This document shows positions 14,606 through 61,584 of a DNA stretch of 64,000 nt, piece after piece (the first letter of the stretch is position 1; the number at the start of each line of letters is the position of its first letter). The stretch spans positions 34,562-98,561 of the forward strand of contig CAZREI010000001.1 in NCBI GenBank assembly GCA_964599285.1, given 5' to 3'. The notes below the pieces were generated by a model. That model was given only the letters and a program-made list of their open reading frames with translations, had not been told where the DNA came from and made no database searches. A program made the translations under genes and the position numbers. This stretch comes from an uncultured Candidatus Saccharibacteria bacterium. GTDB lineage: Bacteria > Patescibacteriota > Minisyncoccia > Minisyncoccales > Staskawiczbacteraceae.

Positions 14606-14677
14606 CGTCATTGCGAGGCGCGCCGAAGCAATCTTTTTGACAATGCCTGGATTGCCGCACTGCGGTTCGCAATGACG
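14606..14677. repeat. family C (GTCATTGCGAG...GCAATC) inverted pair
   Basis: 'cgtcattgcgaggcgcgccgaagcaatc' and 'gattgccgcactgcggttcgcaatgacg'. Confidence 0.8.
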
Positions 14678-25610: not shown

Positions 25611-26591
25611 ATGGAACAAAGCAATATACCAATCCCAAAACACATAAATAACTTCTTAGATTGGATAGATATTGAAAAAGGATTATCTTCTAAAACTCAA
25701 GAAAATTACCGCAGATTCCTTGAAAAATTTTTGGTTTGGTTGAAAAAAAATAATTTAGAAAGTTTGCTTCCCCACCAGCTAACCAAAGAACATATTTGGG
25801 ACTATAGGGTCCACTTATCACGTCATTCCCCTCGACCCAGCCGACCTGGGTACCCCGATAACCAGCCTTTAAAGAAGATAACCCAAAACTACTATTTAAT
25901 CGCTTTAAGGGCCTTTTTAGGCTATTTTGTGGCCAAAGACATACTTTCCATGCCTCCCGATAAAATAACGCTTTCTAGGCCCGATAAAGAGAAAATAGTG
26001 AAGTTTTTGACACTAGAACAGCTATATAAGCTATTTTTAGCTCCAGATACCTCTACGATGCAAGGATTGCGAGATAAAGCCATATTAGAGACCTTCTTTT
26101 CAACCGGAATGAGAATATCAGAGTTAACTTCTTTAAATCGGGAGCAAATTAAAATCAAACCAGGTGCAAATGAAATAGAACTTGGAATTGTCGGCAAGGG
26201 AGGCAGGGCTAGAACCGTTTATTTTTCAAAAAGCACCGTAGAATCGCTAAAAAAATACCTTGACGCGCGAGATACTCAAAACGATAAAGAAAAGGCATTA
26301 TTTGTAAGTTATAGCGGAAAAAAAAATTCACCACACAGATTAACTCCAAGAGCCATTGAAAAAAACTTAAAAAAATACATCATTTTGGCGGGTCTGCCGG
26401 TCACCACAACCCCCCATGTCCTGCGCCATAGCTTTGCTACTGATTTATTGACCCAAGGCGTGGATTTAAGAGTTATCCAGGAATTTCTGGGACATAAAAG
26501 CATTGTTGCCACTCAAATATATGCCCATGTTACGAGTAAAAAATTAAAAGATATCCACCAAAAATTCCACGGCGAGCCAGGTTCAAAGTAA
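25611..26591 (+). CDS. tyrosine recombinase, XerC/XerD-like
   Basis: 'HVLRHSFATDLLTQGVDLRVIQEFLGHKSIVATQIYAHV' (R-H-R-Y catalytic region) and 'GKGGRARTVYF'. Confidence 0.85.
   Translation: MEQSNIPIPKHINNFLDWIDIEKGLSSKTQENYRRFLEKFLVWLKKNNLESLLPHQLTKEHIWDYRVHLSRHSPRPSRPGYPDNQPLKKITQNYYLIALRAFLGYFVAKDILSMPPDKITLSRPDKEKIVKFLTLEQLYKLFLAPDTSTMQGLRDKAILETFFSTGMRISELTSLNREQIKIKPGANEIELGIVGKGGRARTVYFSKSTVESLKKYLDARDTQNDKEKALFVSYSGKKNSPHRLTPRAIEKNLKKYIILAGLPVTTTPHVLRHSFATDLLTQGVDLRVIQEFLGHKSIVATQIYAHVTSKKLKDIHQKFHGEPGSK
25821..25858. repeat. intragenic in-frame repeat word in the recombinase gene
   Basis: 'cgtcattcccctcgacccagccgacctgggtaccccga' (family C-like GTCATTCC plus a cccag..ctggg hairpin) encodes 'RHSPRPSRPGYPD'. 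Confidence 0.45.
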
Positions 26592-28858: not shown

Positions 28859-30295
28859 CTAAATCAAGGTCATTGTAGGAGCTGTAACGGGTGGAGTCGA
28901 ATCCATCGTTCCGGTTGTTGCACCAGTCGTAAATTTGACCCACGACAATGCGATGGTCGCGGTTGTTCCCGGCGGAAGGCCACCTATACCCACCGAAGCG
29001 TAAGATACAAATACTGCCATCATCAATCCAGCGCCACCGTTGGGAACGGCAAGATTCAAACCAGTCAGGTATGCAATTCCATTTACCGGAGCCGCGCACA
29101 CCGTTCCTACGCAAATATTGGTAACGGCGTTGTTGGTAACCGTGAACTTCAGTGCGGTAATAGTCAAGGCACCACCTACCGAAACAAAGTTGTAGGTTGC
29201 CTGGGAAGCATTGACAGCTCCACTACTACCGACCGCGATGGATTGCGACGGCGTTGTAAGAGCGGTAACAATCGTGGGGCGGCTCAAATGGCCGATACTT
29301 AGTGTTAAAGTTTGGCCAGTGATCGGGCCGACCGTAGCCGGAATGTTGTCAACCACGCCGATAGACGAAACTGTCAGCATGGTGGCAATGGTGCCGCTGA
29401 TATCTGGACCGGTGTCGGTAAAGATGTCGAGTACCATGGACTGTCCGGACTGCAAGATGTCGTTAACCGAGAATACATCGTTGCCCGTTGGCTGAATGGC
29501 TTGTGAGCCAGAGCCAGTGGTGTCCGAAGTCTTCAAGCCCGAAAAGTTACTGAAAGTCGTGCCCGCCACGGTCGTGGCAATGCTCAAGGAACTGATCCGG
29601 ATAGCTTCCGACGTTCCCAAGTTTTGTAAAACGTAAGAACCAATCTTTACGTTAGTCGTATTGGGCGCAACGGTTTGGTTTAGGTAAGCGGAATTTTGAG
29701 AAACTACCAGTAACGCGGCGGATTTCAAATGGTGGAGCGTTGGACTTGCGCCACCATACGCCACATGGGAATTAGGAACCGGCGTATTGCGCAAGTCGGC
29801 AAAAAACGCCTGGGCTAATTCCACACCAATCTTGTCTCCCGTGAAGTGGCTGCCAAAGTAAGCGACCACTTGCAGATGGATCAAACGATTTGGCCGAGCC
29901 CACGCCGGATAGAAGGTGCGAAAATCAACCACGTCGGTTTGGTAGTTTGCGCGCGCCGCGGCAATAGGGGTTTCGCAGCCATCTCGCGAATCGCCGTTAA
30001 GGTCAGCCAGAAGCCTCATGCCTATGGTATTAGGCCACAAAACTTCGCTTCCCACGGCCGGGACCAACAGCATTTCTGTCAGCCTTGCGTACGATCGGTT
30101 CGTAGTATTGATGGTCATGTCGGCGATCACCCGATTGGTGGCGCCCGGCAAGATGTTCAACGGCCTTTCGGGCAGGTTCATTACCTGCACCATAGGCGGC
30201 ACAACCGGCGGCAGTGGAGGCAAAAAACCTCCTGTCGGCAATTCCCTATACTCCAACTGTTCCAGCGAAAGACGGCAAACATTCTTCTTGGACAT
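28859..30295 (-). CDS. GC-rich secreted beta-rich orphan protein with an 'LxLEQLExR' N-terminal motif
   Basis: 478 aa. N-terminus 'CRLSLEQLEYRELPTG' followed by a Pro-rich stretch, then Thr/Ser/Gly/Val-rich sequence. Confidence 0.55.
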   Translation of the reverse strand: MSKKNVCRLSLEQLEYRELPTGGFLPPLPPVVPPMVQVMNLPERPLNILPGATNRVIADMTINTTNRSYARLTEMLLVPAVGSEVLWPNTIGMRLLADLNGDSRDGCETPIAAARANYQTDVVDFRTFYPAWARPNRLIHLQVVAYFGSHFTGDKIGVELAQAFFADLRNTPVPNSHVAYGGASPTLHHLKSAALLVVSQNSAYLNQTVAPNTTNVKIGSYVLQNLGTSEAIRISSLSIATTVAGTTFSNFSGLKTSDTTGSGSQAIQPTGNDVFSVNDILQSGQSMVLDIFTDTGPDISGTIATMLTVSSIGVVDNIPATVGPITGQTLTLSIGHLSRPTIVTALTTPSQSIAVGSSGAVNASQATYNFVSVGGALTITALKFTVTNNAVTNICVGTVCAAPVNGIAYLTGLNLAVPNGGAGLMMAVFVSYASVGIGGLPPGTTATIALSWVKFTTGATTGTMDSTPPVTAPTMTLI

Positions 30296-30559: not shown

Positions 30560-30587
30560 GATTGCTTCGCTGCGGCTCGCAATGACG
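30560..30587. repeat. family C element
   Basis: 'gattgcttcgctgcggctcgcaatgacg'. Confidence 0.8.
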
Positions 30588-33611: not shown

Positions 33612-33826
33612 GATAATGGTAATGCAAATCTACAAATCTCATGCGAATGCCGCGAAATTGCGAATGCTACAAATCTTGGATTGCCGCGTGTCCGGCTTGC
33701 GAGCCGGCACTCGCAATGACGACGAGCGCATATACGCCTCTCACCGTCATTGCGAGCCGCAGCGTGGCAATCCAGACACATTAGCAATTTTGTAGATTAG
33801 CATGAGATTTGTAGATTTGCATTGCC
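33612..33826. repeat. family G composite long hairpin with a family C pair at its centre
   Basis: The left arm 'ggtaatgcaaatctacaaatctcatgc' and right arm 'gcatgagatttgtagatttgcattgcc' enclose 33679-33773 ('ggattgccgcg...cgcaatgacg' / 'cgtcattgcgagccgcagcgtggcaatcc'). Confidence 0.8.
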
Positions 33827-36308: not shown

Positions 36309-39300
36309 TTATCTTAATACTTGCGCGTAGTAAGTAATGGTTCTTGTCTGGCCTTGGGTGATGCTGCCGATGTTTAATCCCGATATCACGTCGCCGGAAT
36401 TAGGAATGCCGTCAACCGTTAAGTTTCCCTTGTAAATTAAGTTGTAAGGCAGAAGATCTCGCACCGAAACATTGTTGACGTTCTGAAAGGCAGATGAAGA
36501 AACTACAATTTTAAACTGGACAACATCATCAACGTGGGCATAGACAAAGTTTCCCCAGGTCAACAGTCCATTGGAAAGGTTGCGCACGGTTTTTACCACA
36601 ATGAACGAAGACCGGCTTGTCGTCTGTCCCACACAAGAACTGTTTTGGCAGGTTTGGTTGCCCTGGCAATACTGCGCCACTTCCTGCTGGTTGCCGCAGG
36701 AGTTGTACCAGTACACATTATTGTTGGAACAGAGCTGGTAGGAATGGTTGATGCAGAAATTATTATTGTTATTGATACAGCTTCCGTTCTGGCAGGTTTG
36801 GTTTGAATTGCAGTTGTAGCTGAAGGTTCGGTTGCCGCAATTGTCTTGATTATACACCGCGTTTCCTTGGCAAATCTGGCTGGTATTCTGGTTGCAATTT
36901 TGGTTAACTTGAACACTGCAAGAAGCGCTTTGCGTCTGACCAGCCGATGTTACGGTGACCGAAGCGGTTTGGGTATTTGAATAGTAGTTTGAGTTTGAAA
37001 AAACGTTGGAACAGCTTTGATTGGAACCACTGCAAGCTCCCGACCATTGGTAAGTGTAGCTGCTGTTGCCGCCGGTTGGGCTGGCCGTAAAGGTTACCAC
37101 CTGGTTGGCATTGGCCGGATTTGGAGAAGCATTGCAGGTAACCTGTAAATTGCTTTGAGTTTGGTTAACTTGAACGGAACAGGTGGTGTCTTTAGTTTGG
37201 CCATCGGATGTTACTCTCAAGTTGGCGGTTTGGGTTCCGGTGCTACCAAAAGAATTTTGGCAAGTTTGGCTGGAACCGGTACAGGCGTTGGTCCACTGGT
37301 AATTATAGGTTCCATTGCCACCGCTGACGGTTGGCACAAAGGTTACTTGCTGATTAGTGTTGGCGGGATTAGGAGCAGCCAAACACGAAGCTTGCAGATT
37401 ATTATTGGTAGTTTGATTAACCTGAACACTGCAGATTGCGTCCTGAACTTGACCACCCGAAGTCACCCGAAGCCCGGCATTAAAGGTGCCTGTATTGCTA
37501 AACGTAGTGGAGCAGGTTTGGCCGGAGCCGGTGCAGGCATTGGTCCATTGATAAGTATAGCTGCCGTTCCCACCATTGATAATTGGGAAAAAGGTTACTT
37601 GCTGGTTAGTCGTTGTAGGGTTTGGTGAAGCGCTGCAAGAAATTTGCAAAGGATTTGGCGTTGGGGTTGGGGTAGGAGTTGGGGTCGGGGTTGGCGTAGG
37701 TCCTGGATTTACCTGGACCGTGCAGACCGCATCTTGGGCCTGATTGCCCGAAGTTACATGAAGCGCAGCAGTATAAGTTCCTGGCGCAAATGAGTTTACG
37801 CAGGTTTGGTTATTTCCATTGCAAGCCAACATCCAATGATAAGTATAACTTCCCGTTCCGCCGATGGCGCTTCCAGTAAAGGTAACTGGCTGGTTTGGTG
37901 TGGCGGGATTGGGAGCGCCGCTGCAAGAAATTTGCAGGTCGGCAGTTGGCGCTATAATGCTGAAATAATTGTCTGATAGATCGTTTGGAGCACCGGTTTG
38001 GGTAACATCATCGACTTCTATTTTGTATGTATTGCCTTGTAGCCCAGCTGGTATTGTCCATGAATATGATCCAGAATTAATGGTATTCGCTATAAGCGTA
38101 CTGACAACAACGCCACGATAATCATTAAGGAAAATCTGAATGTTTGCATTTAATGGCACGTTAGTTGATGTCCACGTAATAGTGTGCGTGGTTCCTTGAA
38201 TCCATTGCTCACCTCCATTTGGTGAAATCACGGTAATAGTTGGTGTTGGATTGTTATTGCAGGTGCCGTTTGAGCAGGTTTGGTTGCTTTGGCAATTCTG
38301 CACCAAATTGCCTCGCACTCCGCAAGAGTCAAAGTTGTAAACACCGGTAACTCCGTTGACCGTGGTGCATTGCTGGGATGCGTTTGGAGTGCAGGTTTGG
38401 TTGACTAATACACTGCACGAAGCAGTTTGGGTTTGGTTTCCCGAGGTAACGGTTACGGACGCAACGTGGATTCCCGGAAAAGCATACGCTACCCTGCAAA
38501 TTTGGGCGCTATCGCACATGGCTACTCCTCCGGTCCATTGGTAGCTATAACTGCCAGTGCCTCCGGTGGGTATAGGGGTAAAGGTAACTTGCTGGTTAGT
38601 GTTGGCTGGATTAGGAGAGGAAGAACAGGAAACTTGCAGAGGGTTTGGATTTTGAATGCAGGTTCCGCCCATGCACGTTTCGTTTGCATTGCAAGGTGTT
38701 TTTTGCTGAAACACGGTAGCGGTGTCACAACGGGCATTGGGTGTTGAAGGATTGACACAAGTATTGGTGGTAAAATCTTGCCACACACTGCCGTTAAAGC
38801 ATCTTGGGAATCCCGTGTATCCAGTAGCTCCGCAATCGGTGTTAGTGTTGCACGCGATAGTTTGGTTCTGGCAGACGGCAGTGCTGGAACTGGTGTTGAC
38901 GCAGGTTTGGTTGGTGGTGCAATTTTGGGCAAGACTGCCTCGCACTCCACAAGAATCAAAGTTGTAAACACCGGTAACTCCGTTGATTGTGGCACATTGC
39001 TGAGATGCGTTAGGAGTGCAAACCTGGTTTACCTGGACATCGCAAGTGGCATCCTGGAATTGGCTCCCTGATGTTACATGCAAATGTGCCGTATAGGTTC
39101 CTGGATTTGAAAAGGTGCGAGCGCAGCTTTGGTTGGAACCATTACAATCGCCGGTCCATTGATAGATGAAATTTCCAACGCCTCCGGTAACCGAAGCATG
39201 AAATTGCATTGCGGTGTTGGTCGATACGGGGTTTGGAAAAGCAAAACAGGAAACTTGGAAAGGAAAAGGAGTCGGAGTTGGCGTGGGATTATTAAAACAG

Positions 39301-40025
39301 CTTCCGGATTGGCAAGTTTGGATTGAAGAACAGCTATGGTCAAACGTTTGATTTCCGCAAGAGTCTACATCAAATACCGAATTATTTTGACAGATCTGGC
39401 TGACGTTAGGCGTGCAAGTTGGCGTTGGGGTCGGGGTGGGAGTTGGCGCTGGAGATGGAACGAGACTCGGACAATCATTTATTAAATTTGCAAAGGAATA
39501 CCCAAAAGGCTGACCTGGGTAAGTTACCACTGGCGCGACGCCATTGATGGCATCCATGAAAAAATCCAGCTGCATGGATCCGCAGGACTGGTTGTTAAAT
39601 TGCACCACGTCGGCTTCTATCAATTTGCTTTCACCGGGTTGCAAGGTTACGTCTTGTGAAATGACTTGGCAGGCCTGGCTGGTGGGATTTTGGTCGGGAG
39701 TCCAGTAGTGCTGGCACTGGCCGATTCCGGATCTGGCTGGCCAACCACTGGCTTCCTGGCAACGACAAGAAAACTTGCGCAAAGCAAGCGTCTTGGCAAA
39801 TCCATCGTTGTTTTTGACCCAGGCTTGCAGGCTGTTTTGGCCGCCCACAACATACTGGGCAATCGGGCCGATAGTCAGCCCGTTAAAATAACTTGATGGG
39901 GCAATGACCGTGCCGCTGTTGCCATAGGTATAGTCGGCCGATATTACTCCCGGGTACAATAAGATGCTGGCCAACGCAAAAAACAGCAATGCGCCGGTGC
40001 TCGATGCTTTATATACTATCTTCAT
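36309..40025 (-). CDS. giant secreted protein: ~8 PKD-like repeats, ~6 Cys-rich modules, C-terminal DUF11-like domain
   Basis: Signal peptide from ATG 40025. Repeats 'LQVSC..PNPA.TNQ.VTF....GG.G.Y.YQW...C.G..Q.C'. Cys modules 'C.PNASQQC......VYNFDSCG.......C..NQTC'. PT-rich linkers. Confidence 0.8.
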   Translation of the reverse strand: MKIVYKASSTGALLFFALASILLYPGVISADYTYGNSGTVIAPSSYFNGLTIGPIAQYVVGGQNSLQAWVKNNDGFAKTLALRKFSCRCQEASGWPARSGIGQCQHYWTPDQNPTSQACQVISQDVTLQPGESKLIEADVVQFNNQSCGSMQLDFFMDAINGVAPVVTYPGQPFGYSFANLINDCPSLVPSPAPTPTPTPTPTCTPNVSQICQNNSVFDVDSCGNQTFDHSCSSIQTCQSGSCFNNPTPTPTPFPFQVSCFAFPNPVSTNTAMQFHASVTGGVGNFIYQWTGDCNGSNQSCARTFSNPGTYTAHLHVTSGSQFQDATCDVQVNQVCTPNASQQCATINGVTGVYNFDSCGVRGSLAQNCTTNQTCVNTSSSTAVCQNQTIACNTNTDCGATGYTGFPRCFNGSVWQDFTTNTCVNPSTPNARCDTATVFQQKTPCNANETCMGGTCIQNPNPLQVSCSSSPNPANTNQQVTFTPIPTGGTGSYSYQWTGGVAMCDSAQICRVAYAFPGIHVASVTVTSGNQTQTASCSVLVNQTCTPNASQQCTTVNGVTGVYNFDSCGVRGNLVQNCQSNQTCSNGTCNNNPTPTITVISPNGGEQWIQGTTHTITWTSTNVPLNANIQIFLNDYRGVVVSTLIANTINSGSYSWTIPAGLQGNTYKIEVDDVTQTGAPNDLSDNYFSIIAPTADLQISCSGAPNPATPNQPVTFTGSAIGGTGSYTYHWMLACNGNNQTCVNSFAPGTYTAALHVTSGNQAQDAVCTVQVNPGPTPTPTPTPTPTPTPNPLQISCSASPNPTTTNQQVTFFPIINGGNGSYTYQWTNACTGSGQTCSTTFSNTGTFNAGLRVTSGGQVQDAICSVQVNQTTNNNLQASCLAAPNPANTNQQVTFVPTVSGGNGTYNYQWTNACTGSSQTCQNSFGSTGTQTANLRVTSDGQTKDTTCSVQVNQTQSNLQVTCNASPNPANANQVVTFTASPTGGNSSYTYQWSGACSGSNQSCSNVFSNSNYYSNTQTASVTVTSAGQTQSASCSVQVNQNCNQNTSQICQGNAVYNQDNCGNRTFSYNCNSNQTCQNGSCINNNNNFCINHSYQLCSNNNVYWYNSCGNQQEVAQYCQGNQTCQNSSCVGQTTSRSSFIVVKTVRNLSNGLLTWGNFVYAHVDDVVQFKIVVSSSAFQNVNNVSVRDLLPYNLIYKGNLTVDGIPNSGDVISGLNIGSITQGQTRTITYYAQVLR

Positions 40026-40132
40026 AATCGTGGCGCGCTTTATTAGGCTCGCGTAAGTAGATGCCCGAGAAACTTGGCAAATCCCCACTACAAAACAAAG
40101 CGTCAAATTAATTTACCTTTTTATGTATTTTA

Positions 40133-50998: not shown

Positions 50999-51010
50999 TT
51001 TAAAATTTAA

Positions 51011-51043
51011 AAAAGCCGTCGCGTTTGGAGCGACGGCTTTTTT
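51011..51043. terminator. bidirectional terminator between convergent genes
   Basis: aaaaagccgtcgc-gtttgga-gcgacggcttttt. Confidence 0.7.
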
Positions 51044-51054
51044 AGTTTAGGTTT

Positions 51055-51981
51055 TTACAGGAATTTTTTAAAAAGGCTTTTTACCACAAGAGAACTTAAG
51101 AAAGAAGCCAGTAACTGGGATTGGAGAAGATACGGAAGGTTTGTAGAATTTGTTGAACTTGTTGAAGGTGGCTGGTTTTGAGTATTACTACTATTATTAT
51201 AATTAGAGCTCCCAAGCAAACAATCAGAATTCTCTTGGCATAATTTATTTCCATGGCTAAATACACATTTCATATCTTGGCAGGTGGAACCAGATTCTCT
51301 GCAATCGTATTCCCCACCATTGCATTGGTCAGAACCTGGACCATCTTTTTCTACACACTTTTGGTAAGGTGGATCTTTTTCATCGTCGACACAGACAAAA
51401 TGAGTACTTTTTTTACAATCACTATTATTTCTACATTGATCATCACCTTTTCCTGCTACATAAATACATGTTTCTTGAGAACACTCGGTATGGATTGAGG
51501 AAGTCACACCACACTCGAAATCACCATAACACTGATTAAATCCTCCATGACCTCCACCTAATAAACACCTTTGATTAACACATATATTATTTCTTCCACT
51601 AGCACAATCATCATCACTATTGCATTCATTAATACCTGGACTATTTATTTCTTTGCAAACATTGAGACCTCCTTCTCCGACAGCACATTCGTTGTGATTT
51701 TCTATAACAACCGGAGGAAAGAAGCCAGATCCTGGAATAAAGCAATCTCCATCACGAAGGCATTGATTTTTACCCTCTCCATCTTTAACTTCGCATTTCG
51801 CTGTAGTAATATCTCCCGCCGCCTCCTGAACACATTCATTATGAGTCAATTTAATTGGAGTAGGTGTAGGAGATAAATTACCCGGTGTTTCTCCCGAGTA
51901 GGCTTTTACCGCAACATGCATACCGAATATAAAAACAGAAACAACGCCTAATAAAATAACTGCTTTTAAAAAATTTTTCAT
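51055..51981 (-). CDS. secreted protein with six Cys-rich repeats
   Basis: Signal peptide. Repeats of the form 'C.....C....G.G..QC....DC' occur 6 times. Asn/Ser-rich tail and a hydrophobic C-terminus. Confidence 0.6.
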   Translation of the reverse strand: MKNFLKAVILLGVVSVFIFGMHVAVKAYSGETPGNLSPTPTPIKLTHNECVQEAAGDITTAKCEVKDGEGKNQCLRDGDCFIPGSGFFPPVVIENHNECAVGEGGLNVCKEINSPGINECNSDDDCASGRNNICVNQRCLLGGGHGGFNQCYGDFECGVTSSIHTECSQETCIYVAGKGDDQCRNNSDCKKSTHFVCVDDEKDPPYQKCVEKDGPGSDQCNGGEYDCRESGSTCQDMKCVFSHGNKLCQENSDCLLGSSNYNNSSNTQNQPPSTSSTNSTNLPYLLQSQLLASFLSSLVVKSLFKKFL

Positions 51982-52010
51982 GTATTTTTAATTTTAATAA
52001 TTTTTACTGC

Positions 52011-54488
52011 TTATTTTTTAACTATGGGTGGCGGAGTTGGAGGTACTACCGGAGCCATAACAAACGAGCGCTTTACAATATCTTCTTCCACTATCGCTCG
52101 CGGTTTTCCGTATTTTAATTTGGAGATTTTTTTTATGGCTTCCACAATTTTTGGATTTCCTTTTTTGGGCGCGTACGTTTCCATTTTAAATGGGCTTGAA
52201 ATTTTGTTATTTAACATCATTTTTACAATCAAGTTAAAGTTGTCCAAATTGACCAAGTCAAAACGCGAGAAGCCCGGCTCAAACTGTTTTTCCAAAAATT
52301 CAGCATCTTCCGCGCCAATCCGGAAAGCGCCGATCGTCCCCACGTTCCCCAGCACTGCATTTTTAATTTGATCAGTTAGTTGTGGAATATATTGATGAGC
52401 GATGGTTAAATTTAATTTATACTTTCGGGCTTCAGATAAAATGGTGGCAATGGAATCGGTGGTAAAATTTTGGAACTCGTCAACATACAAGTAAAAATCT
52501 TTTCGCTTTTCAGACGCCATAGCAGATCTTTTCATAGCCGCCATCTGCATTTTGGAAACCAAAATCAGACCCAACAAAGAACTGTTAACTTCACCGGTCT
52601 GACCCTTAGATAAATTGGCCAAAAATATTTTTCCGCTATCCATAATTTCCGATAAATCAAACCCGGATTGACCCTGTCCGATAATATTTCTCATCATTTC
52701 GTTTTCAATGAACCGCCCCACTTTTGACACCACATATCCCAACATATCGCTGCGAGTATTTCCTGTTGTCTGCGCCCATTCTTTGACCCAAAAATTCCTG
52801 ACCACCGGATCCTGCACCTTGGCCAGACGTTCCTGCAAAAAAGCTGGGTCGGTAAACATTTTGGGAATTTCCACCAGCGTGCCCGGGTGATCCTTGTCGG
52901 CCATCAGCGCCAGCATGGCGTTTCGCATGTAGTGTTCAAACATCGGGCCGATGATTTCTGGCGGAAATAGTTTGTAAAAAATGGCAATCATTTCCTGCAC
53001 CGCAAAATCTTTTTGCTCGGGCGAATCGTATTCCAGCATATTTAAACCCATGGGTCGCTCCAGGTCAAAAGGTTCAAACAACACCACGTCGTCAACTCGG
53101 TTTTTGGGAATGTTGGCCAGCGTCGCTTCTATTAATTCCCCGTGCGGGTCAATGACTGCCACGCCTTCCCCATTTTCAATATCCTGTCGAATCATTTCCT
53201 GTAAAAAGGCCGATTTTCCGGTACCGGTTTGCCCAATGACATAAAAGTGGCGGCGGCGATCATCGCGCGAAGCAAAATAGACCCTTTTTTCTTCACCGCG
53301 AAACAATACTTTGCCCAATAAGTTAATCCCCTGTTCCGGCAAATCGCTGGGCGGAGCAGCCACCGCGGATTTTGCGGCTTTAATATAAGGAGTTTCGGTA
53401 AAGTGCGTCGGGAAATGGTAAATGCTGGCCAGTTCTTCAATGTTTAAAATATTGCTTTGCGACTGGTCAAAAATCCGAAAACTGAATTGATACATAAATT
53501 TTTTCAGCTGCCGTTTTTGCACGATTACGGGATTTAAGCTATTGATGGCCGAAAGCGAAAACTGCGAAAAGGCGCCAACTAAGTGATGTAAAATTTCCTC
53601 CGCCCGATCTTTGGATTGGGCGCAAGCCACCAGTCGTATATTTGTTTCAAATGGCTGTTTTTGAATTTTATTTTGCACGGCGTCGTAAGCCACTTGGTCA
53701 AAACCTTGCTCTTTGGGTTTTTGGGATTCCAATTCTTTTTGAGATGGAGTTTGTGGTTTGGCTCCGCTCTTAAATATTTCCGACAAAAGCGTCATGGCCA
53801 TATTTTGCGTGGCTTCTATCACGGCGCTGCGGGCGTTTTTGCCTTCCCTGATTTTTTGCAAAGCCTTTTCGCCTTTTTTCCGTAAATTCAATCCCGATAG
53901 CGGCCGTATGATCACCTGCACCGCCGCGCCTTCGCTGGGCGCAATTTTGCTTAAATTATTGGTGATGGTTGATAAGGGATCCTTTTCCAGTTTTTGGTAG
54001 GTACTGATGGGAAATAAATAATTTTCCTGCAACTTTGTATATGCGCCGGCCGATTCTCCCTGCGGTTCAAAAACGGTATAGTCTTCAGGAACCTTGTCCA
54101 CAATAGCCCGCGGATAAACACCCTGCACGTATTTTTCAAAAGCTGACTCTAAATATGTTGGTACGCAAACATAAAACAAAATATCGCTGCCGCCGGTTTT
54201 TGAGGCGATTTCCAGAGCTATTGATGGCGCTTCTTGAAATACTTTTGGTTTTTTTAAATATAAAAAGTTTGCCAGCACTTGCTCCATTTGGGAAATTAAC
54301 ACTTTTTCTTCCTTTTGCGCCTCGCCTTCTTTTTTGGCTTCGTTTTTTGGCATCATAATCAAAAACAGGACGGATTCTAATCCGCCAAAAACCGCCCGTT
54401 TTTCCGATTGCTCTGCGCGTAGGGCAATCATAAAAGCAAAGACAATCAAGAAAAAAACCAAGATGAGGCCGTAGATGATGAAAGGCAT
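52011..54488 (-). CDS. membrane-anchored P-loop ATPase of the TraD/VirD4/HerA-FtsK type (T4 coupling-protein-like)
   Basis: N-terminal TM. Walker A 'VIGQTGTGKSAFLQEMI', Walker B 'FYLYVDEFQNF' and 'LTIAHQYIPQL'. Confidence 0.75.
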   Translation of the reverse strand: MPFIIYGLILVFFLIVFAFMIALRAEQSEKRAVFGGLESVLFLIMMPKNEAKKEGEAQKEEKVLISQMEQVLANFLYLKKPKVFQEAPSIALEIASKTGGSDILFYVCVPTYLESAFEKYVQGVYPRAIVDKVPEDYTVFEPQGESAGAYTKLQENYLFPISTYQKLEKDPLSTITNNLSKIAPSEGAAVQVIIRPLSGLNLRKKGEKALQKIREGKNARSAVIEATQNMAMTLLSEIFKSGAKPQTPSQKELESQKPKEQGFDQVAYDAVQNKIQKQPFETNIRLVACAQSKDRAEEILHHLVGAFSQFSLSAINSLNPVIVQKRQLKKFMYQFSFRIFDQSQSNILNIEELASIYHFPTHFTETPYIKAAKSAVAAPPSDLPEQGINLLGKVLFRGEEKRVYFASRDDRRRHFYVIGQTGTGKSAFLQEMIRQDIENGEGVAVIDPHGELIEATLANIPKNRVDDVVLFEPFDLERPMGLNMLEYDSPEQKDFAVQEMIAIFYKLFPPEIIGPMFEHYMRNAMLALMADKDHPGTLVEIPKMFTDPAFLQERLAKVQDPVVRNFWVKEWAQTTGNTRSDMLGYVVSKVGRFIENEMMRNIIGQGQSGFDLSEIMDSGKIFLANLSKGQTGEVNSSLLGLILVSKMQMAAMKRSAMASEKRKDFYLYVDEFQNFTTDSIATILSEARKYKLNLTIAHQYIPQLTDQIKNAVLGNVGTIGAFRIGAEDAEFLEKQFEPGFSRFDLVNLDNFNLIVKMMLNNKISSPFKMETYAPKKGNPKIVEAIKKISKLKYGKPRAIVEEDIVKRSFVMAPVVPPTPPPIVKK

Positions 54489-54494
54489 TATTGT

Positions 54495-54639
54495 GAATTA
54501 TTCTAATTATTCTAAGTGCTCTAGTTATTCTAAGGAATGTCTAAAAACGTGAATGACTAATTGCTAAAACGGTTTTGGGATTTTGGTCATTGGGATTTAT
54601 TTAGGTCAATTAGAGTAATTAGGTTAATTAGAATAATTC
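54495..54639 (-). repeat. family F long hairpin, copy 3 (reverse orientation of copy 1)
   Basis: The centre 'ggaatgtctaaaaacgtgaatgactaattgctaaaacggttttgggattttggtcattgggattt' is the reverse complement of the copy 1 centre. It starts 7 nt upstream of the ATPase ATG. Confidence 0.8.
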
Positions 54640-54649
54640 GCAAGGAATT

Positions 54650-55042
54650 TTATTTTAAAAATTCTTTGTAGTATCCTTCTTGCGCCAGCTTGTCATGGAA
54701 TGTATCCAAAAGGTACGGATCATTCATTTTTTTGGCGACTTGCACCGCAAAAACCACTCCTTTAGTTTTGACAAGCTGCAGCAGGTGTTCTAGTTTTTTC
54801 TCATCATCCAGTGATTGCGCTTTTGCCGCGTGCTGCCCTGCTTCATTTTTTTGCTTTGCATCCAAATCCATCGCTTCTAATTCTTGGCGCACTTTTTTAT
54901 GATCAAGTTCATCCTGCGATAATTCCCTTTTTTCCGGCGTTTCTTTGGTTTCCCCTGCAATAGCGGCAGTTTCTTGTTCAATCAAAAACTCCTCGGGCGC
55001 ACCAATTTCTTTGTGTTTTTCAGTTTTATCTTTTTTTACCAT
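54650..55042 (-). CDS. acidic coiled-coil hypothetical protein
   Basis: 130 aa, Glu/Lys-rich, tightly packed in the operon. Confidence 0.45.
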   Translation of the reverse strand: MVKKDKTEKHKEIGAPEEFLIEQETAAIAGETKETPEKRELSQDELDHKKVRQELEAMDLDAKQKNEAGQHAAKAQSLDDEKKLEHLLQLVKTKGVVFAVQVAKKMNDPYLLDTFHDKLAQEGYYKEFLK

Positions 55043-55047
55043 TTCTT

Positions 55048-55668
55048 TTATTGTAGCTGCATGTCGATGATCGCCTTTTGCTTCTTGGAAGAATTGGGAT
55101 CAGACACGATGACTTCTATTTTTAGATCCTTTGATTCTTTAGAAACTTCGTAGTATTTGGTGCAAGGCGTTGGTTCAAATTCGGGTTTTAATAACGCACC
55201 GCACAAATTGGGGTTGGGCAAAAAGTAAAACGCCTGGTCGTTGATGGTGACAAAATTCCGGCCGTCCGAATCAATGATATTGCCCACGTCCCAGGAGTCG
55301 CGCGGAATGTTCACCTTTCCTTTGTTCTGCGCGCCGACAACCACTTTAACGAATCGGTCGGTGGTGGTTAAATTCTGCTGGAAGGCTCGATTTCGGCTTA
55401 CCAAAACGCTGCCTAAGTCCTGGGCCGACTCAAAAACAAAGCGAGTGTTGCCGATGGTGGTTTCGTAGACCGGTTCGGGAGACTCAACAACACCAGAAGG
55501 ACCTGGGCTGGAACTAGGTTTTGCATTTCGGTTAGCCGCGATCCTGATGGCCACAAAAATGATAATCACCACAACCACCAGTAAAATGCCTAAAAATAAA
55601 ATGACCGTTGACACCGCCCCCGCTGATTTTTTTTGATTTTTGATTTTCATAGGAGTATAAGTTTTCAT
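55048..55668 (-). CDS. membrane-anchored extracytoplasmic beta-sandwich-like protein
   Basis: N-terminal TM 'VSTVILFLGILLVVVVIIIFVAI' with a beta-rich C-terminal domain. Confidence 0.5.
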   Translation of the reverse strand: MKTYTPMKIKNQKKSAGAVSTVILFLGILLVVVVIIIFVAIRIAANRNAKPSSSPGPSGVVESPEPVYETTIGNTRFVFESAQDLGSVLVSRNRAFQQNLTTTDRFVKVVVGAQNKGKVNIPRDSWDVGNIIDSDGRNFVTINDQAFYFLPNPNLCGALLKPEFEPTPCTKYYEVSKESKDLKIEVIVSDPNSSKKQKAIIDMQLQ

Positions 55669-55688
55669 TTATTATATCACAAGCCCTT

Positions 55689-55848
55689 TGTCATTGCGAG
55701 ACGGCGCGCCCTCGGGCGCGCCGTTTTGGTAACTCTCGCCACCGTCATTGCGAGTCCCGACCGCAGACCCGCTAAGCGGGCCCGCAGTCGGAGACGCGGC
55801 AATCCAGTCATCACAAAAAGATTGCTTCGCTGCGGCTCGCAATGACGG
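55689..55848. repeat. cluster of three family C elements (one containing a GC palindrome at 55701-55724)
   Basis: 'tgtcattgcgagacggcgcgccctcgggcgcgccgt', 'ccgtcattgcgagtcccgaccgcag...gacgcggcaatcc' and 'gattgcttcgctgcggctcgcaatgacgg'. Confidence 0.8.
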
Positions 55849-55887
55849 CATGCGGTAAGGTTTGTTTCACCGGTCAAACGTCAAATG

Positions 55888-58800
55888 TCACTTGTTAACG
55901 GTATTTAGAGCCGCCAGTGTGGCCGGTCCCACGTTGCCGGTTTGGCGAATGTTTTTTGATTTCTGAAAAAGTTTTACGGCTTGTGTGGTGGCTTGTCCGT
56001 AGTAACCATTGGGAATCGCGGTTAAAAATCCCAACTTTACCAAAAGCTGTTGAAGATTCAAAACGTCGGGACCACGGTCGGTCGGGCCAAGGTAGCGAGT
56101 CAAGGACGTGCTTAAGATTGCTTCGCTGTGGCTCGCAATGACGGGTGACATGACCGTAACTTGGGCAACCGCTCGAGCCTCATGGCCATAGGAATCTTTG
56201 GCAAAGACGGTGATGGTGTGCGTTCCAATATCATGTTGAGTCGGAGTCCAGGTAAAGATGCCCAAGGCATTGATGTTGGCGTTGGTGATACTGGTGGCCA
56301 CGGCAGGCGCGGGCGGCGTGGACTGCTTATTCTCACGAATAAGCAGTCCGTTGAGAACGTCTTTGGTTTTGGGGCCCACGTTTCCGGTTTGGCGGATGTT
56401 TCGAGATTGCTGGAAAAGTTTTACGGCAGTGATGGTTGATGGACCGTAGTTTCCGTTTGGTTGGATGTTTGATGGAAAGAAACCTTGCTGGTGCAACCAT
56501 TGTTGCAGTGCTAAGACATCGGGGCCGTGATCGCCCGGACCAAGGTAGCGGGAGAGCAACGCGCTTTGCGGAGGCACAGTGACGGGTGGCAAAGACACTA
56601 CCGGAGTTGATGGAGTAAACTGGTCGCTTAAAGAATACAACGGGTTGGTGGCAAAACCTTGTGGGTAAGCCTTGAGCGTAACCTGATTACCCGCGGCAAC
56701 GGATTGCTTTGAGTTGGAAAGCGAGAGGCTGAACTGAGAGCCGATCCAGCCGATGCCGCCACCCCCGCCACCTCCACCGGACGGAGTTGGTGTGGGCGTT
56801 GGCGAAGCCGCGGCCGGCGTGGTAGCAGAAGATTCGTTGGATGGATTTCCGATGCCAACAGAATTGATAGCAGAAACTCGGTAGTTGTATTGGGTGCTGG
56901 CAGTCAGGCCGGTATTGGAATAGGTGGTTGCAGTCGTCCCGGTATCGGCCACCAAAACAGCAAATCCGTTGCCAACCGGAGATTCTCTTTCTATTTTGTA
57001 ACCAGTAACCGTTCCTGAAGGCGCCGTCCAAGATAAATCAATCTGGCTGGTAGAAATAGCCGTAGCTGATAAATTAGTTGGAGCATCAGGAATAAATAGC
57101 TGCCAACGAAGATATGGGTAGCCATCGTTGCGCGCCAATGCGCTATCGATGTTCCAAATAGTGGCAAAGTCCCAAGGTTGTGATCCGCCTTGAGCATAAA
57201 CGGCATGAGTAGTTGCTCCCTTGAAAACAGTGGCACCGGCGGGTTCCAGAGTGCCTTGCCCGTTGTCGTGAGCGGAGTCAGTGAAGAAGGAGTTGGTGAT
57301 GGTGGGAATTACATTAGTGTTGCCTATTAAACCACCTACGTTACCTGTACCAGAAACGGTACCGTTAGCATAAGAGTTAGTGATGACAACTAAATTAGCG
57401 AAAGAAATTCCCACTAACCCGCCTATGTTACCGTCGCCAGAAACATTACCGGTAGCATAAGAATTGACAATGGTAGTGGGACCATACGCGCCCGCCATGA
57501 GCCCACCGCTATCAAATCCCGTCCCAAGAACACTTACATTCCCCGTGGCATACGAGTTGGTGATGGTAAGGGTGCCATCTGAGTCACCCACCAAGCCGCC
57601 AGTGTAGATACCGGTTACATTTCCGGTAGCATAGGATTTATCAACAATGAGGATGCCATCCATGTCACCGACTAATCCGCCGATACCATACGATGAATCA
57701 TCGCTGCTTGTGTTGGCAGTAGAGTAAGATTGGGTGATAGTAGTGATTCGGTCATATGGACTAAAATCGTCTTCCACGTATCCCACCAAGCCTCCAATAG
57801 CAAAAGCATTAGTAGGAACTCCGGTTACGCTTCCCGTAGACCAGCAGTTGGTGATGGTTGAAGTGCCAGATGACCAGCCGACAAGTGCGCCAACTTCATA
57901 ACTGCCACTTATGTTAGCTGATTCCACACCAACATTTTGAATGGTAGCATTGTTAATGAAACCAAAAAGCCCAATGGCTTCCACGCCGCTAGTGTTGATG
58001 AATAAGTTAGTGACTTTGTGTCCTTGGCCATTCAGTGATCCTGTGAAGGGAGTGAAGGTGTTATCAAAATCTCCCACGGGGATGAATCCCGCGCCGGAAT
58101 TCCAGTTGACGGTGTCGGAACAGTCAATGTCTCGGTCTAAAATAAAATAGGAAGAAAGCCAGTTATTCATTTCTTGGAGTTGGGTGCAGGAAGTGATTAC
58201 ATACGGATCATTTTGGGTGCCAGAACCCGAGCCGAAAAAAGAGCCTCGTGTAGTAAAATTCAACTCATCACCATACGCGTATCCCTGCGAATTGTGAGCA
58301 TAAGCCCTAAAATAATATGTGGTACTTGAGACGAGGCCAGTTAGGGAAGAGGAGAATGAAATGGCACCAAATGGACCATTGGCATCTTCCGTAAACGTGT
58401 CGTAGCCCGAAGAACCTGGCGCAGTGTTACCAGGATCTGATGGGAAGCTGGTGGTGCCATACACAAATCCTCGCTTGTCGGCATCTTCGCCGCCGGTATC
58501 GGTGATGGTGCCATGGACATCGGCGGCTGTAATGCCAATATTGTCGGAGGAATCGGTGGTAACTACCGGCTGAGAATTGGAAAAGATCCAGCCGGTGTTG
58601 TTGTCTGGGTCGGTGATGGAGTTTGCTCCGGCATACCATTGGGCGCCACCCGTCGCAGCGGAGTCTTGCAAATCAAGGTAGTCGCAATGAACAACGCCCG
58701 ATGGTTTGGACAAGGTATGACGAACTCCGTTGGTGGATGATCGAATGGTAATAATATTTCCTGGACTCCCGGCACAAGTGAACGTGCCATTGATGGTTTG

Positions 58801-61425
58801 AGTGAGAGAGGAGGGGAAGGCAATAGATTCAGGGGCGCCGATGGTAAAATTAGCGAACGTGTTTGCTGAAGAGAAAATTGATGACCCATTTGCTCCTGAA
58901 ATTACGACTGAGGTAGGATAGAATCCTCCAATAGTTCCATTAAAACTGATGAGACCAGAAGAAGTAATGGTGAACACGGGAGTAGTTCCGTTGGCTCGAT
59001 CAACAGAATCAGAAAAGGTAATATTACCATTTCCTGTATCAATGGTAGAATTAGTCGGTATTTGAACTGGACTATTGAATAGCACTGACTGATTCGAGGT
59101 AGTTACATTAGCGTTAAGAAAAGTAAATCCACTGCTAAAAGTAAATGCCCCACTGCCGGAAGCGGTTTGATTTCCATTAAGGAAAATGAAATTTTGAGCA
59201 ATAAAATGAATCGATGTATCCCAAGAGGAATAACTATTTAATGTTATCGTATCTGTTTTTGAGTTGTCACCGATGGTTAGGTCAGTGTAGTTAAGATAAC
59301 CCAGTGTCGTGCTATCAAGTTGCAAAGTTCCCGTTCCGCCGGCTACTCCCACGGTGGTGCTGGCAGTGTAAGGGGCGATCGTCAGTGACGAAACGCTGTT
59401 GATGTCATTGGCTTGGGCAAGGTTGATGGTATCTGTATTAACCGTGATGGTGCCAGTGCCGCTGGTTTGCAGGCCACCAGATATGCCCACTTGGATACCG
59501 TAGTTAGAACTATCACCACCGCCGCGAATACCAATAATAGACAAGTTACCAGACCCTGTAGTTTTGATAGTACTGTTAGTATTAAAAATTGAAATTCCAA
59601 CATTGTCACTACCTGTTCCAGCTCCGCCGCCCGTAGCAGTGATACTCAGATTACCATCAGCCGTAGAAATAGCGCCGCCACTTCTCACAGTTACACCATA
59701 ATTGCTATCGCCATTACCGCTGCCAGTGCCTCCGCCATTACCGATAATACTTAAACTTCCTGATCCGGTATTGCTCATAAGAGCATTGGTACCGGAGACT
59801 TTAACACCATAATTAGCATTACTGGCATCATCACTGCCTCCAGTACCGGTGATAGTCATCGCGCCTCCCGAACCGGTAATAGAACTGCCATCGTTGACGT
59901 AAATACCATAATTACCAAATCCACCACCCGACCCGCTACCACCAGTCCCCGTAACCGAGAGGGTTCCGGTGCCGGTTGTTTGAATACAATGAGAAACCTG
60001 ACACTCAACTCCATCATTAGAATTGCCTGAACCATCAGAATCTCCGCCAATACCCGAAACTGAAAGATTGCCCGAACCGGTAGTTTTAATAGTGCTATTA
60101 GTATTTGCAATCAAAACACCATAACTAGTACTGCCCGTCCCCGCACCACCGCCATTACCGGTAGCAGTTAAATTCCCATCAACCGTAGAAACAATTGCAC
60201 CGCCTCCCATTTGCAAGCCATAGTCTTGGCTACTATCACCAGTTCCCATTCCATTGGCGGTTACAACAAGGGTGCCTGATCCGCTATTATTGATAGCGGC
60301 GGTGCTGCCCGAAATGCGAATGCCGGCATTACTACTGCCGCTGCTATTGCCGCCAGTACCCGTGATAGTCATCGCGCCTCCTGAAGCATTAATAGAACCG
60401 GCCACAAAAATGCCATTGTTACTGCCTCCACTGCTGGTACTGCCGGTTCCTGTAACTGAAATAGCACCAGTACCGGTTGCTTGAATACAATTAACTACAT
60501 TGCAATATACTCCATAATTGCTCCCGCTACTCCCGCTGGGATTGCCCCCGGTTCCGGTAATTGAAATATTCCCCGAACCCGTGCTTTCAATGGTGCTATT
60601 GGTTCCAGTAATATAAACGCCATAGTTATTAGCGCCTGACCCTGCTCCTCCGCCGGTACTATTATTGATGGTAAGATTGCCATTCTCTGCAGAAATACTG
60701 CCACCGGCCGCGACTCGCAAACCATAATCACTATTGCTATTGCTGGTACCATTTCCATTACCCGTGATGGAAATGGTACCCGAACCAGTAGTAGTGATAT
60801 GGCCGTCAAGACCAACGCCTATATTGTTATTGGTAGTAGTGGCAAAACCTTGTCCATTAGCTATGACATTGCCTCCGCCAGCGGTTATTGTCCCTGAAAT
60901 ATAAATACCAATCGGCTGACCAGAATTTCCTATGGCAAACCCGGCACCCGTATCAATAGTACCGCTGCCCCCTCCTACAGTAACATTCCCTCCATTAGAT
61001 GTAATCGTACTATCAATCAGTACATAGCCGGAAGAGTCGGCATCTCTATCCGCATTCAATAAAATGTTAAGTTTGTTGGATGTAGAGGAAATATTTGCAC
61101 CAATATTGAGTATAATATTACTATCAGCGTAGAAACTTGCAGTCGCATCAGTTCCGGAAGATTTGGTAAAGGCATTGTTGACGGTGATGCTGCCTCCGCT
61201 GGCGGTAAAGCTCACACTCGTGCTTGCATTAAGTTGGGTTTGGATATCAGTAACATTGACGACGCAATCACTACCGCTGGTCGCCCAATCCGGACTGCCG
61301 GTGCAAGTAGTAGAAGAACTACTGATAGTAAGGTTGGCAGCTTGGGCGAATACCGGCAGGAACACAAAAAACACGGTAAGAATGAGTGACAGGAGAAAAA
61401 TGTTTTTTACATTACATTTTAACAT
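55888..61425 (-). CDS. giant surface protein: Gly/Ser/Thr-rich tandem repeats, GLUG-motif repeats, FN3, Ig-like and two PG-binding domains
   Basis: Signal peptide. ~140-aa repeats 'TGSGNLS..G.GG...'. 'GGLVG' occurs 6 times. '[21 protein letters not shown]...GYKIERE' is FN3. There are two 'LG.GD.GPDVL.LQ..L...GF......G.YG..T..AVK.FQ....I..TG.VGP.T' domains. Confidence 0.85.
56116..56144. repeat. family C element embedded in frame in the giant gene
   Basis: 'gattgcttcgctgtggctcgcaatgacgg' differs by 1 nt from the intergenic copies at 55820-55848 and 30560-30587. It translates as '[10 protein letters not shown]'. Confidence 0.85.
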
Positions 61426-61538
61426 AGTGCTAATGTGAAATTCGAAATTTTTGCAGACATATTCTTAAATTATACCACGATTTTGCGAGCCATTACCATC
61501 TCTTTTTTGTGGATAAATATCTGGTCAAAATAAAATCA

Positions 61539-61560
61539 GCGCGGCCCCGCGGGGCCGCGC
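61539..61560 (-). terminator. perfect 22-nt GC palindrome, likely prmC terminator
   Basis: gcgcggccccg|cggggccgcgc is flanked by an A-run and a T-run. Confidence 0.6.
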
Positions 61561-61584
61561 CTATTTATTTTGTGAAGAGCTAAG

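Follow-up and report, generated by a model that had tools for sequence, protein, structure and literature searches.

Within a 64,000-nucleotide stretch of contig CAZREI010000001.1 (hereafter the window), a block of five co-oriented minus-strand genes is a composite, consisting of a conserved core formed by an ATPase gene and the small gene that precedes it (p130), a membrane protein gene shared at the level of a clade (p206), and two lineage-specific insertions at the flanks that encode a giant surface protein, the adhesin, and a secreted cysteine-repeat protein. The ATPase belongs to the DUF8128 family, which is near-universal in the Patescibacteria, is conserved to the degree of a translation factor and, judged by synteny, is essential in Southlakia epibionticum, the only genetically tractable member of the phylum. 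We see an even chance that the p130-ATPase pair acts as a detached coupling-type motor with its adaptor, serving a type IV secretion system (T4SS) encoded elsewhere. A large part of bacterial diversity belongs to the Patescibacteria, of whose phylum-specific essential genes few have an assigned role. Handles for experiments are offered by the dedicated small partner, by the clade in which it is fused to the ATPase and by the existence of two paralogue types. Should the ATPase be the missing motor of the essential patescibacterial T4SS, it would be the entry point to the cargo moved between epibiont and host; otherwise it would represent a new core machine.

An original prediction, made from the letters of the window and their translations, had treated the five genes as one unit and proposed that the ATPase powers a minimal, lineage-specific transfer device associated with the adhesin rather than a canonical T4SS. 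The five open reading frames (ORFs) are present exactly where it had placed them, and they have broadly the properties that it had assigned. In the order of the minus strand these are the 1845-aa adhesin (55888-61425), with a signal peptide and two PG_binding_1 matches in Pfam; p206 (206 aa, 55048-55668), modelled by AlphaFold2 as a transmembrane helix followed by a beta-sandwich; p130 (130 aa, 54650-55042), which is mildly acidic (pI 5.6); the 825-aa ATPase (52011-54488), with one N-terminal helix and matches to coupling-protein families of Pfam above their gathering cut-offs; and the cysteine-repeat protein (308 aa, 51055-51981), with a signal peptide and 24 cysteines. Strong hairpin terminators at 61538-61561 and 51007-51045 flank the block. 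Counted from the cysteine-repeat gene, the gaps between the ORFs are 29, 161, 5 and 219 nt; as had been described, they either are short (29 and 5 nt) or contain repeats, an AT-rich palindrome in the 161-nt spacer and a GC-rich dispersed repeat in the 219-nt spacer.

Domain structure and family membership of the ATPase

The ATPase is composed of three regions, all read from the minus strand. Its membrane anchor (54378..54488) is modelled as a helix of residues 2-37 with a hydrophobic core at about residues 3-23, the hydropathy maximum being 3.07 at residues 3-21. It is followed by an alpha/beta N-domain, DUF8128, at residues 39-386 (53331..54374), and by a nucleotide-binding domain (NBD) resembling that of type IV coupling proteins (T4CPs) at residues 387-810 (52059..53330), which contains the Walker A sequence GQTGTGKS (residues 419-426) and the Walker B sequence YVDEF (residues 668-672). 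An EELAS..HFP motif, invariant in an alignment of 62 sequences, marks the junction of the N-domain with the NBD. The AlphaFold2 model (predicted local distance difference test, pLDDT, 86.8; predicted template modelling score, pTM, 0.74) comprises a long N-terminal helix, the alpha/beta domain (residues 39-356 in the model), a RecA-type domain and an all-alpha insertion in the NBD, located at about residues 490-618 between strands 468-471 and 621-625; within the N-domain the pLDDT is mostly above 85 except in the loop 230-261. Across 24 sequences with 30-56% identity to the window ATPase, the two Walker motifs (including G419, G422, K425, D670 and E671) do not vary, nor do R688 and Q699, and the enzyme is therefore presumably active.

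Assignment to DUF8128 (PF26449) comes from the precomputed annotation of an identical database protein (P0001), and the same annotation is carried by all 120 homologues among the matches listed, which places the ATPase in this family. More than 7,700 homologues were found, the best 120 of them at 73-85% identity, and the family extends to 21,871 clusters at 50% identity with E <1e-3, of which 5,749 have E <1e-30. When a profile of the 62 sequences was compared with the sequences of the PDB, the N-domain retrieved only designed repeat proteins, and no Pfam family recurs across the 62 members. Many members (P0285, P0286, P0301, P0316 and others) end in a Pro/Ala-rich tail of 400-1,200 aa that looks disordered and in which the motifs PPPIGAPPV and DITGG recur; the tail of the window ATPase is short and Pro-rich. 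We considered these long tails as a clue to function and rejected them on the grounds that they look disordered and hold no Pfam domains.

Several comparisons link the NBD to T4CPs. The Pfam families T4SS-DNA_transf, DUF87 and TrwB_AAD_bind all match above their gathering cut-offs within residues 390-730 (T4SS-DNA_transf with 38.8 bits versus 20.1), phmmer aligns the ATPase with TrwB at E 8e-5, and a Foldseek search of the PDB returned TrwB-deltaN70 (template modelling (TM) score 0.59-0.65, E ~1e-12, about 430 of 437 residues) as well as Cagbeta and HerA. With the T4CPs TrwB of R388, VirD4, TraD and Cagbeta, the ATPase has in common an FtsK/HerA-superfamily NBD, the all-alpha insertion (at the level of the model) and an N-terminal membrane tether. 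T4CPs, however, possess two transmembrane helices directly before the NBD, whereas the window ATPase has one, followed by the 350-aa DUF8128 domain, and one clade described below has none. The best NCBIfam match is to the CD1115 (PcfC) family, and the NCBIfam equivalog scores are far below cut-off (47.6 versus 250 for CD1115, 43.9 versus 366 for the TraD family). TrwK/VirB4 gave the lowest Foldseek E value (3e-15), a full-length alignment and a similar two-domain size layout, but a global TM score of only 0.26-0.31; on the models, this match can be explained by the C-terminal domain alone. The Pfam family CagE_TrbE_VirB does not match the ATPase, and an all-alpha insertion in the NBD is a feature of T4CPs. 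Assignment to FtsK/SpoIIIE is not borne out (FtsK_SpoIIIE scores 15.9 bits versus 24, and no gamma domain was found), nor is assignment to HerA (NCBIfam HerA 27.5 versus 970, with no conserved nuclease partner). The protein thus qualifies in part as a type IV coupling protein and is best placed as a patescibacterial DUF8128 ATPase of the coupling-protein kind.

Genomic setting and conservation of the ATPase gene

Apart from the block, the window contains genes for L21, ornithine/aspartate carbamoyltransferase, a methyltransferase (MTase), EF-P, MurC, TyrRS, AspRS/AsnRS, CTP synthase, FtsW, MurG and GltX. Homologues of the ATPase are labelled Parcubacteria, Patescibacteria or Staskawiczbacteria, and the nearest species-level genomes, by the ATPase, are those of Candidatus Staskawiczbacteria (77-81% identity). 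This housekeeping gene content, together with the naming of the homologues and the closest genomes, shows that the window is chromosomal DNA of a bacterium of the Candidate Phyla Radiation (CPR)/Patescibacteria.

We compared the block with a set of 80 species-representative loci from many patescibacterial classes and four loci on metagenome contigs (84 in total). The window ATPase shares 74-81% identity with the ATPases of its relatives; in the same genome pairs the values are 72-85% for EF-P, 64-72% for L21, 60-70% for MurC and 51-53% for TyrRS. p130 and p206 are 44-56% identical. Elsewhere the ATPase gene is found beside dnaX and cysS, beside secY-adk-map and ndk, or beside comM and gyrB-gyrA, and rmuC is also among its neighbours in DNA metabolism. 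In 14 loci (L013, L015, L017, L022, L025, L026, L029, L030, L037-L039, L052, L061 and L082), which include Uhrbacteria and Magasanikbacteria, a co-oriented dnaX gene is found downstream of the ATPase gene, two genes off where this was checked (for example in L022, L025 and L026); in L022 at least, cysS is just upstream.

The original prediction had noted that no VirB4, VirB6, relaxase or pilin gene is visible in the window, and none of these families was found among the scanned window ORFs, in a scan that passed over several ORFs of 160-250 aa and that short pilins could escape. No VirB4-like gene lies within 8 kb of the ATPase in the 80 loci, where the Walker-A proteins of at least 400 aa are DnaX, ClpB, ComM, FtsH and ABC proteins, although the strict motif filter may miss atypical VirB4s. 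The ATPase is in this sense an orphan, as had been proposed, since it is encoded apart from T4SS genes. T4CPs, in contrast, are encoded with relaxase or mating-pair-formation genes, none of which turned up within 8 kb of the ATPase in the 80 loci; the DUF8128 ATPase differs from T4CPs further in being chromosomal, housekeeping-like and extremely conserved. Because its conservation is like that of EF-P and its neighbours are housekeeping genes without VirB4-like genes among them, the ATPase gene has the hallmarks of a core chromosomal gene and not those of a mobile element or defence island. The p130-ATPase module is vertically inherited and Patescibacteria-wide, with strong purifying selection on the ATPase; the lineage-specific character that had been proposed for the device thus holds for the ATPase family at the level of the phylum.

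A pair of co-oriented DUF8128 paralogues, each near the other, occurs in L044 (1128-3587 and 3587-6163), L051 (8001-10373 and 12232-15453) and L056 (7929-10496 and 13630-16557). The second copies of these three loci form a separate deep clade (type 2) in a neighbour-joining tree.

p130, a small partner encoded upstream of the ATPase

p130 is read as a small cytoplasmic protein, the N-terminal half of which is highly charged, poorly conserved and disordered-looking. Its C-terminal portion of about 45 aa is conserved, and alignments delimit a helical domain at residues 83-125 (54668..54796, minus strand) with the motif K..LL.L...KG...A..VA.KM.DPY.LD.FHD.L., for which no relatives were found in the PDB or Pfam. 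An iterated hidden Markov model (HMM) detects the p130 family in 39 of the 84 loci, always immediately 5' of the ATPase or fused to it: it is a separate gene in about 30 loci, and in 10 loci a p130-like module and the ATPase are joined in frame, with products of 908-935 aa (the longest, for example, at L069:7563-10370). The proteins of this fused clade have no hydrophobic segment; the p130 module takes the place of the transmembrane helix and is joined at the first strand of the N-domain. This natural fusion, a Rosetta-stone arrangement, is the best evidence for a physical interaction of p130 with the ATPase. Of the partnerships with small proteins that had been suggested for the ATPase, the one with p130 is thus supported by conserved upstream position and by the fusions; that with p206 extends only to the 10 closest loci.

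More generally, 68 of 76 loci have a co-oriented gene immediately before the ATPase gene, and the two are frequently no more than 10 nt apart or overlap by 4 nt. In other classes this position is occupied by families of small proteins without detectable homology to p130, one of them in 15 loci and several smaller ones that include the saccharibacterial family, and all of these families combine a long low-complexity N-terminal part with a short helical C-terminal part. Two of the groups of small upstream proteins (A and B) were examined as distant homologues of p130 and set aside after hhalign found nothing. In most of the dnaX-linked loci the small upstream protein is of another family, marked by the motif KGEETA...WLK.IPGVNKFFLEQEAKIK.

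The arrangement recalls that of PcfB (DUF3801) and PcfC in pCF10, in which a small gene stands immediately before the T4CP gene. p130 and PcfB have no detectable homology, however: the hhalign probability was 0.2-0.3%, with one and then with four PcfB sequences, and DUF3801 of Pfam matches 3 of 38 p130 members weakly (best E 0.015). The candidate was therefore rejected as a homologue and kept as an analogy, the likeness being one of gene order and presumed role. A similar comparison can be drawn with CagZ, a small regulator bound to the T4CP Cagbeta (PDB 8dol).

The probable counterpart pair of Southlakia epibionticum and published surveys

A survey of 3,035 Patescibacteria genomes found 5,713 T4CP homologues of the VirD4 type in 2,918 of them, only 148 of the 5,713 lying near virB4, and found VirB4 in 2,417 genomes; its authors did not rule out exaptation of the T4CPs (Quinonero-Coronel et al. 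2025, PMC12102498). In the part of its Table S1 covered here, VirB4 is recorded for 9 of 10 Staskawiczbacteria genomes, including the source genomes of L006 and L009. The difference in prevalence between T4CPs (96% of genomes) and VirB4 (80%) is expected from incomplete metagenome-assembled genomes if the former are present in about two copies and detection is 0.8 (1 - 0.2^2 = 0.96), and it does not discriminate between coupling to a T4SS and an independent role.

In S. epibionticum, the T4SS cluster (SEML1_0006-0019) is essential and has no recognisable coupling protein (Wang et al. 2023, PMC10633639). Tables S1 and S2 of that study list SEML1_0142, a core and Patescibacteria-enriched protein of 1019 aa with a P-loop domain at 381-800 and a transposon sequencing call of ES at three time points, and, 12 nt upstream of it, the hypothetical protein SEML1_0141 (139 aa; GD/ES/ES); by these calls both genes are essential. 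The same study reports a second paralogue, SEML1_0293 (921 aa), as non-essential and a canonical FtsK, SEML1_0096, as essential; SEML1_0141 and SEML1_0142 are absent from its main text. The gene order of SEML1_0138-0145 is found again in the saccharibacterial loci L068 and L083: ComM (minus strand), a small protein with four transmembrane segments, another small protein (about 145 aa), the ATPase (about 1000 aa), a pair of minus-strand genes, GyrB and GyrA. The ATPases of these two loci group with the window ATPase in the main clade of the neighbour-joining tree. Since synteny and gene lengths agree, and the clade is shared, we infer that the window ATPase and the essential SEML1_0142 are of one orthologue type.

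SEML1_0141/0142 show the layout of p130 and the window ATPase, in that a small ORF precedes the gene for a large ATPase (about 1000 aa), the P-loop domain of which starts near residue 380. The saccharibacterial small protein shares with p130 an architecture and a DDPY-like motif but no detectable homology, and the membrane protein encoded upstream of it is of the DUF2178 type with four transmembrane segments, unlike p206. In the literature searched, the existence of the family and its location apart from virB4 had been noted before, the ATPases appearing only as 'T4CP homologues' for which exaptation is considered (PMC12102498) and in table rows that receive no discussion (PMC10633639); we found there no description of the small partner, of its fusion to the ATPase, of the two paralogue types or of the link to SEML1_0141/0142.

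p206 and the insertions at the flanks

p206 is matched by its family HMM only in the 10 closest of the 84 loci, where it is separated from p130 by 5 nt or overlaps it (in the window it ends 5 nt before p130). The database copy begins 6 codons later and has 200 aa. In the AlphaFold2 model (pLDDT 90.3) a single transmembrane helix precedes the beta-sandwich, and a cysteine pair, C156/C169, is conserved. Foldseek relates this model to YxkC, Lmo 4eae, YjhA and 4les with E values of 2e-5 to 6e-3. In its modelled overall fold and its membrane-anchored or lipoprotein topology p206 resembles the DUF4352-type proteins of Gram-positive bacteria (YxkC, YjhA and Lmo 4eae), but there is no family match at the sequence level in Pfam or NCBIfam, and the TM scores are modest (0.40-0.57). 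The model suggests that p206 is a bitopic protein with an extracytoplasmic DUF4352-like beta-sandwich. In a Staskawiczbacteria-level clade it is a third member, closely coupled upstream of the p130-ATPase pair. We know of no link between DUF4352-type proteins and ATPases. In L031 (4578-7460), L042 and L053, the p130-ATPase pair is preceded by genes for a protein of 855-1022 aa, which has one predicted hydrophobic segment and no Pfam family, and for a protein of about 105 aa; these may be a lineage-specific counterpart of p206.

The two outer genes of the block are of a different kind. The adhesin contains a G/S/T/N-rich repeat region (49% of residues), one FN3 domain (56824-57087, minus strand) and its two PG_binding_1 domains (56329-56544 and 55906-56076, minus strand), all three domains being Pfam matches. 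Its GC content is 0.47-0.51 (window positions 56001-60000), versus 0.39-0.44 in the surroundings (flanks about 0.42), an excess that may result from its Gly/Ala/Ser/Thr-rich composition or from foreign origin. The 24 cysteines of the cysteine-repeat protein form six four-cysteine modules, and no Pfam or NCBIfam family matches it. Neither protein has a homologue in the 84 loci by phmmer or blastp. In L010, the gene order is L21-MTase-p206-p130-ATPase-EF-P (convergent)-HHH protein-MurC-TyrRS, and it is similar in L005, L009 and L011; the MTase gene directly abuts p206 in L005, L009 and L010, where the adhesin site is empty, and the ATPase gene directly abuts EF-P in L010 and L011, where the site of the cysteine-repeat gene is empty. 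Because these relatives share the backbone of the window minus those two genes, the adhesin (between MTase and p206) and the cysteine-repeat protein (between ATPase and EF-P) are lineage-specific insertions beside a conserved trio. Other genes are found at the flanks of the trio in close relatives: a PDDEXK nuclease gene lies upstream in L001 and L003 (L001, L003 and L004 are the only loci with such a gene two positions ahead of p206), and the ATPase is followed by a 693-aa DKNYY protein in L001 and by a 1341-aa G8-domain protein in L009.

Proposed role of the p130-ATPase pair and its alternatives

If p130 and the ATPase serve a T4SS, the ATPase would form a hexameric ring at the inner membrane face and, with ATP, would feed a protein or nucleic acid substrate to a patescibacterial T4SS that is encoded elsewhere and has no neighbouring coupling protein. 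p130 would dock on the N-terminal region of the ATPase as an adaptor or regulator, in a role likened to that of CagZ on Cagbeta or of TraM on TraD. The proposal that the ATPase powers a stand-alone device instead of a T4SS fares less well, as the occurrence of VirB4 in the genomes of relatives and the rarity with which T4CP homologues lie near virB4 lean against it. Several findings weigh against a coupling role: the 80 loci provide no physical or genetic link to a T4SS and no VirB4-like P-loop protein within 8 kb; the canonical two-transmembrane T4CP domain is absent, with the 350-aa DUF8128 domain in its place; the fused clade is without any transmembrane segment, an unusual condition among coupling proteins; the small proteins encoded upstream fall, across classes, into at least three sequence-unrelated families; and orthology with SEML1_0142 is based on synteny and gene lengths and not on its sequence. 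Conservation and housekeeping context also fit a core cellular process better than an accessory of secretion. Furthermore, a T4CP homologue of S. epibionticum was reported to be non-essential (PMC12102498). This would be the other paralogue, which fits the non-essential SEML1_0293.

The main rival, a less probable reading, is that the pair is a T4SS-independent housekeeping translocase, an essential and phylum-specific motor acting on DNA or protein that has only its fold in common with T4CPs and that performs a core task such as genome maintenance, the handling of nucleic acid that has been imported, or the biogenesis of membrane proteins or of the envelope. Conservation at the level of EF-P, the residence of the gene in housekeeping operons with recurring neighbours of DNA metabolism (dnaX in 14 loci, gyrB/gyrA, comM, rmuC and the PDDEXK nuclease), the novel N-domain, the clade of fused proteins that lack a transmembrane segment, the lack of a nearby T4SS gene in the 80 loci, the essentiality in S. 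epibionticum deduced from synteny and the exaptation left possible by the authors of PMC12102498 all speak for such a translocase. It is disfavoured by the patescibacterial T4SS clusters that have no T4CP of their own. ATPases of the T4CP fold with an all-alpha insertion are, to our knowledge, otherwise found in T4SS contexts, which also argues for coupling. Replacement of FtsK was considered as a function of the translocase and rejected because S. epibionticum has the canonical, essential FtsK SEML1_0096. It is less likely than not, in our estimate, that the pair constitutes an essential, phylum-defining machine independent of the T4SS, a translocase of coupling-protein fold recruited to a core cellular task, in the fuller sense that its N-domain is perhaps derived from the N-domain of VirB4, that its adaptor has been swapped between classes and that in one clade the adaptor has been fused in place of the anchor.

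Two further explanations concern the block as a whole. That the five genes form one device, with the ATPase exporting or serving the adhesin and the cysteine-repeat protein, could be argued from their co-orientation between strong terminators and from the other large secreted proteins beside the trio in close relatives (those of L001 and L009). Conservation of the neighbourhood, on which the adhesin-associated device of the original prediction depended, was not found: the 84 loci contain no counterpart of either protein, and the closest relatives lack both genes at those positions. Additionally, large proteins with an N-terminal hydrophobic segment are no commoner beside the ATPase than several genes off in the 80 species, so that no position around it shows an excess of large secreted proteins, and as both proteins have ordinary signal peptides, Sec export suffices for them. 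We therefore rejected a link of the adhesin and the cysteine-repeat protein to the ATPase, and hold a single five-gene device to be highly improbable. Scarcely credible at all is that the block is what remains of an integrated conjugative element, or a defence system built on a HerA/DUF87-type ATPase with accessory genes. Such an origin might be read from weak PADLOC matches to the mad8 and HerA models, from the resemblance of the gene order to PcfB-PcfC of pCF10 and from the serine and tyrosine recombinases elsewhere in the window. The PADLOC matches, however, cover only the generic P-loop region, for which reason a defence system was rejected; between p130 and PcfB/DUF3801 no homology is detectable; the ATPase family occurs almost throughout the phylum, is inherited vertically and is conserved like EF-P, between housekeeping flanks in conserved order; and neither a patchy, transfer-like distribution nor flanking attachment sites were seen.

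Spacers, repeats and other features of the window

The spacer of 161 nt between p130 and the ATPase (54489..54649, minus strand) is an AT-rich imperfect inverted repeat with 43-nt arms of TAATTAGAATAA-like units. The arms span 54491-54643, and a promoter-like site, TTGACC/CAAAAT at 54609-54580, lies between them. The spacer measures 3-152 nt in close relatives and is thus not conserved; judged by its sequence, it could be an operator or promoter.

A large serine recombinase gene is located at the left end of the window (602-1912, minus strand). In a Logan contig that matches this end (L086), the serine recombinase is followed by a gene with an SduA_C domain and a Peptidase_S24 gene. A tyrosine recombinase is encoded in the middle of the window (25611-26591, plus strand). 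The recombinase genes and the SduA_C and Peptidase_S24 genes could represent a mobile or defence island unrelated to the ATPase block. Rfam identifies a single tRNA in the window. An 875-aa protein (17090-19717, plus strand) has Mur-ligase domains confined to its C-terminal 330 aa, the N-terminal 540 aa being without a Pfam match, and a 478-aa ORF (28859-30295, minus strand) is without a Pfam family. The adhesin is accompanied in the window by a second large surface protein, a 1265-aa PKD-domain protein (36309-40106, minus strand).

Several records of the comparison set that are labelled 'uncultured Gammaproteobacteria', 'Bdellovibrionales' or 'Methylomirabilota' (L029, L030, L031, L033, L035, L040, L042 and others) carry full-length DUF8128 ATPases in CPR-like gene contexts, and these organism labels are probably wrong.

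The 219-nt spacer between p206 and the adhesin (55669..55887, minus strand) is GC-rich and carries a dispersed repeat copy, GTCATTGCGAGCCGCAGCGAAGCAATC, and a GC hairpin. The GC-rich repeat of 27 nt, GTCATTGCGAGCCNCAGCGAAGCAATC, occurs five times in the window (14607-14633, 30560-30586, 33746-33772, 55820-55846 and 56116-56142), versus 0 copies expected by chance. The copy at 55820-55846 lies in the spacer just downstream of the adhesin, and that at 56116-56142 is inside the adhesin ORF, where it is translated between the two PG_binding_1 domains.

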